In this document: one piece after another, positions 23,856-42,576 of the stretch
Layout: the number at the start of each line of letters is the position of its first letter
Numbering within the stretch: position 1 is the stretch's first letter
Sequence record: OL825705.1
DNA: 64,000 bases
DNA from: Escherichia phage vB_EcoM_DE7
Direction: 5' to 3' (one strand)
The notes under the pieces: model-generated
Database searches by the model: none
Seen by the model: only the letters and a program-made list of their open reading frames with translations
Told to the model about the DNA's origin: nothing
Position numbers and translations under genes: made by a program

Positions 23856-24371
23856 TCAAGATAGTTTTGCAAACTCTCCGTGGAGTTTCACAGCAGCTTC
23901 ACAGTAAGCTTTATGGGCTTCTTCTTCTGTTGTGTACGTCCCGATATGTATAGTCTTACCATTATGGTTAATCTGGGCTTTCCACTTACCAGACTTACTT
24001 CTACTTGTACCTTTTAAGTTTTTTGATGTTCTAGGTTGCCTCCTATTAGACATGTTCTGTTCTTTTGTGGCCTCTCTAAGATTGTCCCAAGCATTATTCA
24101 AACCGTTCCCGTCTTTGTGGTCAATATGATTGTCAGGCCACTTACCTGTCATCCAGAACCAAGCAATTCGGTGATTGCCTGTCCTGTATCCTAAAATCTG
24201 GGTTTGCATATACACACCAGACCTTGTGCGCTTGATTGTACCAGCCTGTCTTCCAATCACCACCCTACTGCTATGTGGAGGTCTGCCAATCCAAGTCAAG
24301 ACCCCTGTTTCGGGGTCGTAGTCTAACCAAGATTTTAACTGTTCATGTGTGAATCCACAATCTCTCATCAA
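23856..24371 (-). CDS. HNH homing endonuclease with AP2-like DNA-binding domain
   Basis: HNH motif IDHKDGNGLNNAWDNLREATKEQN plus C-terminal AP2-like segment SGKWKAQINHNGKTIHIGTYTTEEEAHKAY. Confidence 0.75.
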   Translation of the reverse strand: MMRDCGFTHEQLKSWLDYDPETGVLTWIGRPPHSSRVVIGRQAGTIKRTRSGVYMQTQILGYRTGNHRIAWFWMTGKWPDNHIDHKDGNGLNNAWDNLREATKEQNMSNRRQPRTSKNLKGTSRSKSGKWKAQINHNGKTIHIGTYTTEEEAHKAYCEAAVKLHGEFAKLS

Positions 24372-24927
24372 TGTACCTCATACCACGATTTACCAACCTT
24401 TGCTGTACCAGTTACAAGTGTTTCTTTCCTCAAACCTAAGTTTTTTGAAGCTTGTCCATACATCCAGTCAGCAATTGCTTTCATATCATGTGTCATACCC
24501 TCTGGACATTCCCAACTATTTTCATCGTGATATGCCAGAAGTAACCTTGCTCCGATAGCTGGTTTTCGAGCATTCAGTTTTGTCAGACCATCTTCACAGG
24601 CTTTTCTTGCTGCTAGGTTGATGGCCTCATTCTGAATCTGTGCTTCCGAACTCATCAGGAGGTAGTTCAGTAGTTTATGTGGAGATTTGCACCATATCCA
24701 TGCTCCAGCGACCCTGATATAACCACCTTTAGCAATTGAAGAATTCTTCCCAAAAACCTCTTCCAGAGCCTTTTTAGACGCCTTAAAATCGGCTTCTAAG
24801 CTATCAAGTAACTTCTTAATCTTTGGCAGACGCATATAGTAGGTCTGCTTAGTCAATGCACCTTCCTCTGTAGAAGCTGCCTTAATGGTTTTGGCAAACT
24901 TCTCATCACCTGCACCGAACAATACAT
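24368..24927 (-). CDS. DNA polymerase (family A), exon 2
   Basis: Begins with motif B remainder LFGAGDEK and ends ...KSWYEVH like the Pol I C-terminus; no ATG, joined to exon 1 by splicing (junction +/- 3 nt). Confidence 0.7.
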
Positions 24928-25732
24928 CTGGTCAATACACTCGCAAGGTGTACCAGTTCTCTTATGAACTTCTCCGCATTTCTACGGAGTGTCGGACTAT
25001 ATCACGTAGTAGTTATACTACCGTTGCACTTGGGAATGGTCATTAGCTTACCACCCTACTCTACTCAGTTCATACATTAAGTATGCTTTTCGATAGTCTC
25101 TGAACGTTTCTCTGTTAGGAATCTCTATAGTTATATCATTTGCTTAGATAGTCAATTGCTCTTTGCATGTTATCAACACTATCTGCAAGCAACCCCAAAG
25201 CTCTGTTGCAATTGTGGCATAACATACCTCTTACCTTTCCGGTTTTATGGTCATGGTCAACAACAAGTTTAGCCTTGTGTCGTGAGCCATTCATGATAAA
25301 ACCTTCACCGCCACAAATTTGACATTTGTAATCACAGTCACGGAGTAGGGCTTCAACCTCTTCTCTTTCCAATCCATATGTTCTTAGGTAGTAATTCTTA
25401 ACTCTACCTTTCTCACCGCAATGTGACGAACAATAAACTTGCCTTGCTGTTCTCGGCATGAACACATTCTCACAACTAGGACATTTCTTAGTAAGAACCC
25501 TGTGTTCCGCCCTTCTGTCAAATTTTAACACACAACTTCTGCACCGTTTTTGATTGTATTGGTACGGTTTAAACTCCGTGCCACACTCAGTGCATAATCT
25601 CTCTTCGTAACCTGCCATTGTCTCTCTCCTTTGTTTTAGGAGTCCTAACAGAGACTTCGCTGCTGATTACCATATCTTTACAGACTTAGGCTTCCAGCAA
25701 TTCACAACGTTTTACATGCGCCACTGACGCAT
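24928..25732 (-). other. group I intron in DNA polymerase gene, carrying an endonuclease ORF
   Basis: Interrupts motif B; stop codon just inside; AGACUA ... GAUAUAGUCCGAC P7-like elements shared with the nrdD intron; hairpin with U-G at proposed 5' splice site; G before exon 2. Confidence 0.6.
25136..25618 (-). CDS. intron-encoded Endo VII-type HNH endonuclease
   Basis: VVDHDHKTGKVRGMLCHNCNRALG motif and zinc-binding cysteines; own SD AAAGGAGAGAGA. Confidence 0.7.
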   Translation of the reverse strand: MAGYEERLCTECGTEFKPYQYNQKRCRSCVLKFDRRAEHRVLTKKCPSCENVFMPRTARQVYCSSHCGEKGRVKNYYLRTYGLEREEVEALLRDCDYKCQICGGEGFIMNGSRHKAKLVVDHDHKTGKVRGMLCHNCNRALGLLADSVDNMQRAIDYLSK

Positions 25733-27902
25733 AAATGCCATTTTTGCTCTTCTTACGACCTTTTGTAATCTCGTGAAGAAGTTCCTCATCCTGTGTCTCC
25801 CTGCAACGAACAATATCCTCTTCTTTGTTAAGACCAAAGTAAATACTGTTCAGTGTATGCGCATCAGTCCCTGTGTAGACTTCATAGAGGTCATTTTCAG
25901 CATCATAACGCAGATACTTGTCAGTTTCTGGGTTAAGATACTTGTCAAGATGTTTACAGTAGTATCTACCATCATCTTGCTTAGTGAACTCTACTGACTC
26001 TTTACCCTCAGTTACCGCTTTAGTGAAGTCTTCATCACCCATAAAGTTACAAAGAAGAACTAGCTGGGCTGAGTTCTGGTCAACAGAAACAATGTTAGTC
26101 CCCTCTTCACAAATCCACACCTCCCTCATAGGTGCTCCATAGACAGCAGCGCCAGACGGTACGTTTACAATACCATATTGAGTCATACGTCCAGTTGAAG
26201 TACCAAATACCATTGCACCAGCACTAAGGCGACCATCAGGACGAATCTGGTTCAACCAACCTTTTTCATCATCCTTTGAGTTCTCAATAGTTCTGCGTCG
26301 GTGCATCAAAGTATAGTATTTAGCAATCTTCTGTCCAAGCTCACCTTCAATCGTATCATAAGATGATTCAGTAAGTTTTGGTGAAGTACGGATTAAACAA
26401 GGTTCAAGTAAATCTGTGTACTTCTTCACAGACCAGTTATGTTCAATGTACTGGACACCTTCATGTTCAACATAACTCAAACCACACCGTTCCACCATCT
26501 CATCCCACTTAGGATGCTTTGTAATCATCTTTTTGTTGTCTTTGAAACGACAAACTTTGACAGGACGACCATCTGAGTCTTTCTTATAGTTCCAGTCATC
26601 TGGAATCCAACCAACTGATTTCAAGTAGTCTTTAACAACCGCTACCTGAGTCATACGAGAAACTTCGAACTCAATTGGTGTATATGGTGCATCAATCAAA
26701 CCTGTGTAGCGACTTGACTCAAGCTCAAAGTGGTTAACAACATGACTGTTATAGTACTTCACAGTTTTTACTGTTTTTACTGGCTTCCAGTCTTTGCATT
26801 TCTTACCAATCTTTGCATTCAACTCATTGCAAATTGCACGAGCATCCTTCATTGCTACAAAACCTTCCTTGTACTCTTCACCAGTTACAGAGTTGGTTGG
26901 TGTATAGCAATTCCGTTTTTCAATGTTAAAAATCTTTGTAGTTGGCTTACCAAATGGCTTGATTTCATATGTCTGCATTTCACCGTTACGTACCTGCTGA
27001 CGATACTTTGTCTTAGGGTACTTGGTAATTCTCTTCAGTCCATCTGCATGACCAAATGCTTCAACATACTCATTCCAAGCTTTTGCAAACTCTTCTCCAG
27101 TGACTTTACCTTTGGTTTTAATAGTCGGAGGTAGATGTGGTTCAACCTCTGAAGCAAGCTCATTAGTCAACTTGTCAAGTTCCTTTACATGAAACTCCAT
27201 AAGTTCTTTATCAGCTTTCCAACCATTGATAGCCTGTTGACTCATCCAGAAAGATGTTTCTTTAGCTCGCATATAGGTTTCATAGGTGTCTACGCCACAC
27301 TTCTTTAACTTCAGATATTCATTATCCAGTGCACGTTTAGTTTTGGCGTTAATACGGATATCCTCTACAACACGAGTGAAGATTTCTGCATTCCACACAC
27401 CCCAATGTTCAATCTCTGGTTTACGTACACCAACACGAGCACCCCATGCAGCCAAGCCATGAGCACCTTTGTAGCCCTTTGGAGTTGGTCTATCCATCCA
27501 CTGAACACGAGACTGGATAAGAGAATCCTGAAAGAAATTACTCCACGGCTTACACTTTGGATTATCAAAGTTCCACAAATCAGGTGCAATGTGATTGAAA
27601 ACCCACCAGTCATATCCCAGACCATTATGGATGCAAAGTCGTTTTGCCTTTAACGCAAACTCAACACCTTCACGCAAACCACCCTTGATGTACTTGGTAT
27701 ACTTGTGACCGAGGATAGGTTCATCTGTAAAGACCCATACAGGTGGCTCTTCATCGTCAGACTTATAGTCTGCGAAAGCCATTACGTGCACTTTAGTGAA
27801 CTCAAGGAGTAAACCATCAGTTTCTGTATCACCAACTAAATGTAAGTTTTTAAAATCTACGTTTTCCATTTCTACTCCCTCTAAATCATTAACCTCATAC
27901 AT
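25733..27902 (-). CDS. DNA polymerase (family A), exon 1 (exonuclease and N-terminal polymerase domains)
   Basis: Pol I-type region DAHTLNSIYFGL ... RKKSKNGIY (motif B start); track ORF 25686..27902 runs 15 codons into the intron before a stop. Confidence 0.8.
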
Positions 27903-41063: not shown

Positions 41064-42260
41064 ATGAACAAAGTACAGATTATTAAAAAGAATGGCTCAC
41101 TTGAAGAACCGGATATCAAAAAAGTTTTAACAGCAGTAACTAAGTCAGCTAACAGGGTTGGTTATAAAGAACTCCCACCAGATGTTATCCAAGCTCTTGA
41201 GTCAGCATTTATGAGGATTCTGGTAAAATCCACTAAGCAGAATAACTTGCTCATCTCGGTAAATGATATCCACAGTATCGTTGAAGGTGCTTTGGCAGAA
41301 GTCAATCACGAGATTTATGAGTCTTACTCAACATATAGAAATTACCGTAAAGAGGTTGCTCAAAATTGGGATGAACTTTACCAAAAGACCAGAGACACGC
41401 TCTTCTTAGGTGACCGTGAAAATGCTAACTTTGACAGTAGTTTAATTTCTACAAAAGGTTCAATTATTCGTGGTTATCTGACTAAAGAAATCTTTAAACA
41501 GTACCATTTAACACCAGAGGAACTTGAAGCCATTGAAAAAGGGTTTATCTACATCCATGACTTAAGAGACCTAATTTTTGGTGGTATTAACTGTTGCCTG
41601 TTCGACATTGGTAAAGTACTGAAAGGTGGCTTTGAAATGTCTGGCATCGAATACTGTGAACCTAAGTCTGTGCTGTCAGCCTTACAGGTTATTGGTGATG
41701 TAGTTCTTTCAGCAACTGCACAGCAATTTGGTGGCTTTACTTTAGCAGAGATTGATAAGGTGCTTGTACCGTATGCTAAGAAGTCTCTACGCTATCATGC
41801 TGAGAAAGCAGCATCTTATGGTATCCCTAAAGAACATTACCATAATTATGTCATGGAGCAGCTACAGATTGAATTAACTCAAGGTTTCCAGTCACTAGAG
41901 ATGAAGCTAAATACTGTACCTTGCAGCCGTGGTGATTTTGCATTCACAACTTTAACATTTGGTTTACTTGACTCAGATATGTCTAATGAAGACAACCGAC
42001 TACAATACATGATTGCAAACACCATTCTTGATGTTCGTATGAATGGACAAGGTAAGAGCAAGAAACCTGTTGTATTTCCTAAACTGGTTTATATCTATGA
42101 CCAGAAGAGACACGATGAGAATATCTGTCAAGGTCAACTGTACAGTAAAGCTATTGAGTGTTGCTCTAAAGCAATGTATCCAGATTTCTTAAGCGTCTCT
42201 GGTCATGGTGCTGTAGCAGAGGCTTTTGAGCGTTCTGGTAAGGTTATTTCACCGATGGGT
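41064..42260 (+). CDS. nrdD: anaerobic ribonucleotide reductase, exon 1
   Basis: N-terminal ATP-cone-like region; reading frame ends ...ISPMG then stop inside the intron. Confidence 0.85.
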
Positions 42261-42576
42261 TAACAAGCTCTATAGCTCATCTAAAACGTGCCTAAACAGG
42301 GAAACTCTACAGGTGTAGACAATCCTGTGCTAAATGATGTACGATGTAAGAAACTATATAACATAGAAGTATTACATGCCAAATAACCTCGAATATGAGT
42401 TTGAGTACATTTAAATGCCGAACGACTAACCGTGATGAATGTAGCGGTGTAGGGTCAAGCGACTCGAAATGGCACGCTACTTAGAAATAAGTAGAAGATA
42501 TAGTCTGGACTTACTGGCGACAGTAAGCAGCTTGAATAAAGCGGGGTAAGCGTAGCGAACTTACCTGAACAACAAG
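42261..42576 (+). other. group I intron (no ORF) in nrdD
   Basis: GUAGACAAUCCUGUGCUAAAU, GACUAACCG and AGAUAUAGUCUGGAC segments resemble the T4 td-type intron core as recalled; exon ends in U, intron ends in G; exons join in frame across PMG|CRAFL. Confidence 0.8.

Follow-up and report, generated by a model that had tools for sequence, protein, structure and literature searches.

The window (the whole stretch of 64,000 nucleotides that was analysed) belongs to a Felixounavirus, i.e., a Felix O1-like myophage, and the 3.7-kb polymerase locus described here, all features of which lie on the minus strand, has matches of 80-99% identity in 262 phage records, almost all of which come from Felix O1-like myophages of Escherichia, Salmonella, Shigella and Citrobacter. 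The N-terminal and central parts of a family-A DNA polymerase are encoded by an ORF of 738 aa (27902..25686), which reads through ...ITKGRKKSKNGIY (KGRKKSKNGIY) and continues past GIY for 14 codons (ASVAHVKRCELLEA) before it stops, in agreement with the original prediction of 15 codons if the stop is counted. The C-terminal part, (L)FGAGDEKFAK...KSWYEVH, was found, as predicted, in a separate downstream ORF without an ATG (24922..24368). Its start is a mechanical TTG at 24922, before which no ribosome-binding site was evident by eye, and the first in-frame ATG of exon 2 comes only after about 30 codons; the nearest ATG (24927) is out of frame. A third ORF of 160 aa with its own ATG lies between the two pieces (25136..25618). 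Most database records give each polymerase half its own ‘DNA polymerase’ CDS and list an ‘endonuclease VII’ besides. No Pol A gene other than the split polymerase was seen in this conserved replication module.

Among relatives the intervening sequence is optional, and the polymerase genes of Felix O1, wV8, pinkbiff and vB_CECAV_041 are uninterrupted. Felix O1 encodes a 906-aa polymerase, and its genome paper reports no intron, correctly (PMC3185647); both exons of the window are intact and colinear with the Felix O1 gene. Using the Rfam partial matches, the ORF-less homologues, the intron-less alleles and the structure counts, we placed the intron at 24925..25726 (802 nt); it begins CAGUGGCGCAUG... 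and finishes ...GACCAGAUG (...CCAGAUG), with the terminal G at 24925. These ends were set because only the corresponding junction, GCGU|...AUG|UAUUG, matches both the intron-less alleles and the group I rules: it is the sole one that reproduces the intron-less IYALLFG with no indel, and it provides six pairs between the exon and the internal guide sequence (IGS) in P1 as well as five pairs in P10. Exon 1 (25727..27902; ORF list, alignment to the intact Felix O1 polymerase and translation of the spliced gene) comprises 725 codons and the first base of Leu726 and ends ...AAU GGC AUU UAU GCG U. Exon 2 (24368..24924; ORF list, Felix O1 alignment, spliced translation and colinearity with T7 gp5) reads UA UUG UUC GGU..., i.e., (L)LFGAGDEK...WYEVH and the stop codon. 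Joining 25727 to 24924 gives GCG UUA UUG (Ala-Leu-Leu), and join(27902..25727, 24924..24368) on the minus strand encodes one 910-aa enzyme with the junction peptide KNGIYALLFGAGDEK. The residues of this peptide are identical, with no indel, in 4/4 intron-less alleles examined (the four phages named above), all of which read IYALLFG at the junction, and the comparison with uninterrupted genes of relatives, which had been proposed as a check, supports the intron with this junction.

The interruption had originally been placed at 24928-25732, which is the right region with slightly different ends. The junction proposed there (exon 1 ending ...AUUU at 25733, intron 25732..24928) joins ATTT to ATGTATTG and does give an open frame of 909 codons, with a U before the intron, a G at its end and, at the foot of the 5′ hairpin, a possible U25733.G25715 pair. 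However, the resulting IYVLFG has one residue deleted relative to 4/4 intron-less homologues, and the product should have 910 aa, not 909. Essentially no exon-guide pairing would remain 5′ of that cleavage site, because AUGCGU/GCGCAU becomes an intron-intron pairing, and there is no P10 comparable to UAUUG/CAGUG. We consider this junction very improbable. The U-G pair that had been assigned to the splice site on the basis of the hairpin is better represented by the loop-adjacent U25727.G25721, which fits the group I rules, and the G expected before exon 2 is present as the terminal nucleotide of the intron, but at 24925. The junction had been given an uncertainty of 3 nt; the 5′ end is in fact shifted by 6 nt, beyond that margin, and the 3′ end by 3 nt. 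The two junctions predict different spliced cDNAs, GCGUUAUUG (RNA ...AAUGGCAUUUAUGCGU|UAUUGUUCGGU...) for 25727|24924 and AUUUAUGUAUUG (RNA ...AUUU|AUGUAUUG) for the earlier proposal. Among database annotations, the Meda record has a joined CDS, the length of which fits both candidate junctions, and that of vB Seyj1-1, consulted as a possible source of an independent junction annotation, lacks such a CDS.

The codons flanking the insertion are GCG U|UA UUG in 9/9 intron-containing alleles examined and GCC C|UG UUA or GCA C|UG CUG in intron-less alleles (the empty site of Felix O1 and vB_CECAV_041 reads ...UACGCCC|UGUUAUUU...). These synonymous differences are exactly those that create the splice-site U and the P1 and P10 pairings, as is expected if homing co-converts the flanking codons along with the intron, or if these codons are under selection for splicing.

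The spliced protein aligns unbroken to residues 517-621 of T7 DNA polymerase (gp5) across the junction, and R716, K720, Y724 and F728 of the window protein correspond in this alignment to T7 R518, K522, Y526 and Y530. The intron is inserted between the first and second bases of codon Leu726, which corresponds to T7 F528 and belongs to the O-helix (motif B) of the fingers; we take this position to be the equivalent of E. coli L764, from the T7 alignment and the standard T7-Klenow correspondence. The break point lies between the equivalents of T7 Y526 and Y530, within one active-site helix, and a polymerase broken there without RNA splicing is unlikely to be tolerated.

At the gathering threshold of RF00028 (50 bits), the Rfam search of the whole window matched only an intron in nrdD (see below) and not the polymerase intron. 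With a relaxed threshold, two partial RF00028 matches were obtained on the minus strand, at 25699..25609 (model positions 60-139, corresponding to P4-P6; 24.6 bits, E = 7.7e-4) and at 25271..24972 (15.2 bits). Such a split match is what one would expect of an element with a large ORF looped out of P6, and the 513 nt in the P6a loop of the window copy, with the ORF among them, account for its partial scores. Over the full length of the RF00028 model, the ORF-less introns reach 62.3 bits (Mushroom) and 64.2 bits (JLBYU28), and their core positions are identical to those of the window in 279/280 and 263/268 cases, respectively; in the alignment, the window element equals these ORF-less introns plus 513 nt in the loop of an extended P6 (P6a). 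The covariance-model search, which had been named as a check on the group I assignment, is in agreement with it for the ORF-less homologues; for the window copy it gives the two partial matches, one on each side of the ORF.

We built a P1-P10 model by hand and counted its pairs on an alignment of eight variants from which the ORF had been removed. The model contains 82 pairs, which are standard-paired in 635/635 cells (100%) and all intact in the window copy; when the 3′ partners were slid by 1-3 columns as a control, 30-47% were paired. In the P1 hairpin (25716..25732; read from the sequence, with pair counts), the exon sequence AUGCGU (25732-25727) and the internal guide GCGCAU (25721-25716) form the stem, in which U25727.G25721 marks the 5′ splice site, and P10 is formed by the P1 loop CAGUG (25726-25722) and UAUUG of exon 2 (24924-24920). 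All 11 pairs of P1 and P10 are invariant and paired in the 8 variants. The 5′ half of the ribozyme core (25643..25709; Rfam model positions 60-139, thermodynamic fold and pair counts) includes the 5′ strand of P3 (25709-25705), P4 (25699-25694/25666-25661), P5, P5a with a GUAA tetraloop, P6 and the 5′ strand of P6a (25654-25643). The 3′ half (24925..25120; Rfam match 25271..24972, RF00028 alignment of the ORF-less homologues and pair counts) includes the 3′ strand of P6a (25120-25109), P7 (GACUA 25098-25094/UAGUC 24999-24995), which is pseudoknotted with P3, then P7.1, P7.2, the 3′ strand of P3 (25026-25022), P8, P9, P9.1, P9.2 and the terminal G. The predicted group I fold, with a P3-P9 core and a P3/P7 pseudoknot, can be drawn with every modelled pair formed, and P3, P4-P6, P7, P8 and P9 are also located by the Rfam alignments. 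The minimum free energy fold of the ORF-deleted window intron recovers P3, P4, P5, P5a, P6a, P7.1, P7.2, P9 and P9.1 (z = -3.3).

Compensatory changes are few among these ribozymes, which are about 96-99% identical. One U-A pair of P6a is C-G in three short forms, a U-A pair of P8 is C-G in four sequences, and one P8 pair changes from U-A to U.G; a first register of P8 with a loop of 3 was discarded, as only a register with a 6-nt loop supplies a compensating partner for the U-to-C change of JH2. Double changes are seen in two pairs, a count reached by 312/500 shuffles; the covariation statistics are weak, and they speak for consistency with the model, not for proof. The P5a loop changes from GUAA to GAGA in one variant, both being GNRA tetraloops. 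The other 11 variable columns of the core lie outside the modelled pairs (in the P5a, P7.1, P8 and short-form P6 loops, in the P7.2 bulge and, for one column, beside P5).

P7.1 (CAUAC/GUAUG) and P7.2 (GGGUGGU/ACCA-CCC) are paired in all variants, and variation is confined to the bulge. With P7.1 and P7.2 and no P2, the intron would be of the IA type, and by P7.1 and P7.2 only it appears IA2-like; the linker between P7.1 and P7.2 has 14 nt (AACUGAGUAGAGUA) and is not a bare GUA, and P2 is absent, as it is in the intron of Pf-WMP3 (PMC3428280). A scan for sigma-70 promoters and terminators found nothing inside the intron.

These data support a self-splicing-type group I intron with its own homing endonuclease gene in motif B of the Pol A gene. 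Chance does not explain the signal, as judged from the E-value of the partial Rfam match, the bit scores of the ORF-less homologues, the pairing relative to the slid controls and the z-score of the fold. Split genes whose separately translated parts assemble have been reported for some T4-related phages, and the polymerase might accordingly be fractured with no RNA splicing, a free-standing endonuclease gene having split it into parts that are translated separately and assemble into an active enzyme. The two annotated CDSs of most records and the in-frame stop of the exon 1 frame 14 codons into the insert would both suit this reading, which we nevertheless regard as most unlikely: the sequences on either side of the ORF make up an Rfam-grade group I ribozyme, about 96-99% conserved and with compensatory changes, the ORF-less versions retain a ribozyme of 267-311 nt rather than a continuous gene, exon 2 has neither an early in-frame ATG nor, by eye, a ribosome-binding site at TTG 24922, and the break falls inside one active-site helix (T7 Y526-Y530 equivalents). 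Even less probable, to the point of being negligible, is a decayed intron that no longer splices and has left the polymerase as a pseudogene in this phage. The degenerate endonuclease ORFs of some relatives (VpaE1, GE_vB_BS) would be in line with such decay, with nothing direct in its favour, but the gene is the only Pol A gene seen in the replication module, the intron occurs in about 100 isolates that form plaques, the two exons are intact and align colinearly with Felix O1, and all modelled pairs are intact in the window copy. An intein was rejected, as the exon 1 frame stops 14 codons after GIY and the endonuclease ORF has its own ATG and a Shine-Dalgarno-like sequence.

The ORF in the P6a loop of the group I intron contains VVDHDHKTGKVRGMLCHNCN, with DHDH at residues 121-124 and CHNCN at residues 134-138, and it matches the Pfam family Endonuclease_7 (PF02945) over residues 79-159 with 71.3 bits (cut-off 23.6), so that an Endo VII-type ORF lies within the intervening sequence as had been predicted. 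In the PDB it matches Hpy99I (1.4e-5) and T4 Endo VII (5e-3), and the catalytic and Zn residues are all present (C99/C102, D121 H122 D123 H124, R130, C134/C137 and N138). The motif lies at the C-terminus, which is also its place in the ‘endonuclease clade’ of Fang et al. 2018 (PMC6083498). The N-terminal half contains Zn-ribbon-like segments (CxxC at C9, C26 and C46, with invariant C63/C67 downstream) and may have a role in DNA binding. From these residue positions and matches, the protein is a putative Endo VII-motif (DHHRN-type) homing endonuclease. A Shine-Dalgarno-like AAGGAGAG precedes the ORF at 25631-25624; a hairpin that would sequester it (CUCCU/AGGAG) was rejected as not significant (z = -1.41; 22/200 shuffles fold as well). 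The dN/dS ratio is 0.035 relative to the JH2 endonuclease, and relative to that of EC6 dN is 0.14 with dS saturated; the ORF is under purifying selection.

In a search of a phage collection with the intervening sequence, about 40 records carry the full form of about 800 nt and about 57 (extrapolated from evenly spaced rows among the matches listed) carry an ORF-less form of 267-311 nt, of which only the ends match (34-40% coverage, split in two pieces); the intron is present in roughly 100 cultured isolates that form plaques. The endonuclease copy of VpaE1 has a 22-nt deletion and is annotated as two ORFs, and that of GE_vB_BS (an unverified record) contains frameshifts. At least two independent types of ORF-less intron exist, one in Mushroom, where P6a is retained together with a remnant of the 3′ end of the ORF, and one represented by JLBYU28, in which P6 is shortened. 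The presence of full, decayed, ORF-less and empty sites in close relatives matches the classic homing cycle, and three states (intron with endonuclease, ORF-less intron and empty site) are all sampled there.

We regard it as very probable that the element is a mobile IA-type group I intron in the Leu726 codon of the O-helix, encoding an Endo VII-motif endonuclease in its P6a loop. The RNA architecture, the restored frame, the patchy distribution and the selection on the endonuclease are observed; we infer splicing itself, endonuclease activity and homing, the splicing steps following standard group I chemistry. On folding of the pre-mRNA, the exon 1 end AUGCGU would pair with the internal guide GCGCAU, and exogenous guanosine would attack after U25727 of the U.G pair. 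P10 (UAUUG with CAGUG) would align exon 2, the freed 3′-OH of exon 1 would attack after the terminal G at 24925, and the join GCG U|UA UUG would yield the intact 910-aa polymerase. The 160-aa endonuclease most likely cuts intron-less polymerase alleles of co-infecting relatives, whereupon repair would copy the intron together with flanking exon codons into the cut allele; the patchy distribution, the co-varying flanking codons and the decayed copies support this indirectly. Our searches found no RNA or protein data on ligated exons for any Felixounavirus, and, in the literature searched, no splice-junction mapping, structure model or splicing experiment for a Felixounavirus intron.

This selfish element is already known from sister phages, and it is an unremarkable representative of a familiar class. 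In Fang et al. 2018 (PMC6083498), the proteins with an Endo VII motif from JH2, EC6, FSL SP-010 and 2 JES-2013 are listed as intron-encoded homing endonucleases, and a genome note mentions an ORF-less intron in the polymerase gene of Meda (PMC6486253); in the passages of these two papers that were covered, neither a splice junction nor a secondary structure is given. The introns of the sister phages have the same insertion site and flanking codons as that of the window, which is a different isolate with a polymerase region about 92% identical to the best database records. The JH2 element is 97.5% identical to that of the window (ribozyme 275/280, endonuclease 98.75% aa). In EC6, 278/280 positions of the ribozyme are identical, and the endonuclease shares only 80% aa and 73% nt identity. 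The corrected junction and the structure model are small additions to this knowledge, not a discovery. Their main value is for annotation: in Felixounavirus records the polymerase should be one joined gene of 910 aa, and the Endo VII-like ORF should carry the label of a putative homing endonuclease encoded in an intron instead of that of a recombination resolvase. Biologically, the locus adds one more case of an essential phage enzyme whose most conserved helix harbours a group I intron, and it opens no new question.

Intron-borne Endo VII-type ORFs 41-44% identical to that of the window were found in Altay-2017 (Berlinvirus) and Jarilo (Jarilovirus), both T7-like, and in ManiMatter_Bas94; Berlin and YpP-G are named in PMC6083498. 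The endonucleases of Altay-2017, Jarilo and ManiMatter_Bas94 can be aligned with the window protein from its residue 44 or so up to the C-terminus and lack the first CxxC...CxxC segment of that protein. Their introns, like that of the window, lie in Pol A motif B with the ORF upstream of P7, give partial or near-threshold RF00028 matches and have the P9.1 sequence AGUUCAUAAGAGAAC in common with it, whereas the guide sequence and the 5′ half of the ribozyme differ. In Altay-2017 and Jarilo the insertion is 11 nt upstream, in the T7 F524 codon (RDNAKTF|IYGF), compared to the F528 equivalent in the window. F-CphI of cyanophage S-PM2 has the same C-terminal motif of CxxC, DHDH, R and CxxC-N as the window ORF; it is free-standing beside an intron-containing psbA, whereas the window ORF is inside the intron and its activity is predicted. 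F-CphI is the founding characterised Endo VII-motif (DHHRN) homing endonuclease, and its motif residues are essential by mutagenesis (PMC6083498).

Self-splicing group IA2 introns of phage Pol A genes that have been characterised by experiment are those of SPO1, SP82 and Bastille (I-HmuI, I-HmuII and I-BasI), Pf-WMP3 (I-PfoP3I) and PhiI and W31 (I-TslI; for these two phages, PMC3428280 and PMC6083498). The window intron resembles these in having P7.1 and P7.2, an endonuclease ORF that starts in P6a and a location in a highly conserved polymerase segment. Their sites, together with that of phiL7, are, in E. coli numbering, 674 (SPO1, SP82, Bastille and Pf-WMP3), 676 (phiL7) and 881 (PhiI and W31) (PMC3428280), and the endonucleases at these sites belong to the HNH family, in contrast to the Endo VII/DHHRN type of the window. 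It is possible, though we put it forward only tentatively, that the T7 F528-equivalent site is an uncatalogued intron site (compared to 674, 676 and 881, and 11 nt from the Berlinvirus/Jarilovirus site) and that the element documents modular exchange of endonuclease alleles within one ribozyme scaffold. Such exchange is suggested because the ribozymes of the window and EC6 are nearly identical, yet 27% of the nucleotides differ between their ORFs, with synonymous divergence at saturation. If this is true, Felixounaviruses would be a natural system in which endonuclease genes and introns move independently.

A second group I intron is present in the window at 42191-42527 (plus strand), inside nrdD, with an Rfam match at curated thresholds. 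P7-like segments had been predicted to be common to both introns: AGACUA and GAUAUAGUCCGAC are indeed present in the polymerase intron, and the nrdD intron carries related, not identical, segments (CGACUA and GAUAUAGUCUGGAC).

The ribozyme of the polymerase intron and that of its counterpart in phage EC6 (L009) are identical at 278 of 280 positions, yet the endonuclease ORFs that they carry (25136-25618, minus strand, in the window; 420-899 in L009) share only 72.7% nucleotide and 80% amino acid identity, with saturated synonymous divergence. The histories of ribozyme and endonuclease gene thus seem to differ, which suggests that endonuclease alleles were swapped inside an unchanging intron scaffold.

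In two other relatives, VpaE1 (L011, 418-878) and GE_vB_BS (L010), the intron endonuclease is decayed. A 22-nt deletion has broken the VpaE1 ORF into two annotated CDSs, and the GE_vB_BS copy contains several single-base indels (these could be sequencing errors; the record is unverified).

The frame of polymerase exon 1 enters the window intron for 13 full codons beyond the splice-site codon, crossing P1, then P3 and the first (5') strand of P4, and ends at a UAA overlapping P5 (25686-25688, minus strand), so that ribosomes reading on past exon 1 would, as judged from this layout, transiently unfold the 5' core.

The second group I intron of the window, which is without an ORF, interrupts the anaerobic ribonucleotide reductase gene nrdD (RF00028 match at 42191-42527, plus strand, 55.6 bits). 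With the junction judged by eye, the exons join as ...CCGAUGGGU + UGUAGAGCA and encode ...SPMG/CRAFLSPY... (slash at the junction), and P1 is AUGGGU/GCUCAU; the Rfam match therefore begins about 70 nt ahead of the intron, still within exon 1, and the real limits are likely 42261-42576 (plus strand).

An unannotated group I intron was also identified in the N4-like Erwinia phage MIF8 (L014, PP700702.1; 2455-2702; RF00028, 94.4 bits), immediately 3' of an "RNAP2-like protein" CDS and upstream of a "hypothetical protein", so that it probably splits the RNAP2 gene. Over 65 nt this intron is 81.5% identical to the 5' portion (P1-P5a) of the polymerase intron in the window.

A free-standing HNH/AP2-type homing endonuclease ORF of 171 aa (23856-24371, minus strand) overlaps the polymerase stop codon, and an HNH endonuclease occupies the equivalent position in Felix O1 (ORF95) and Mushroom.
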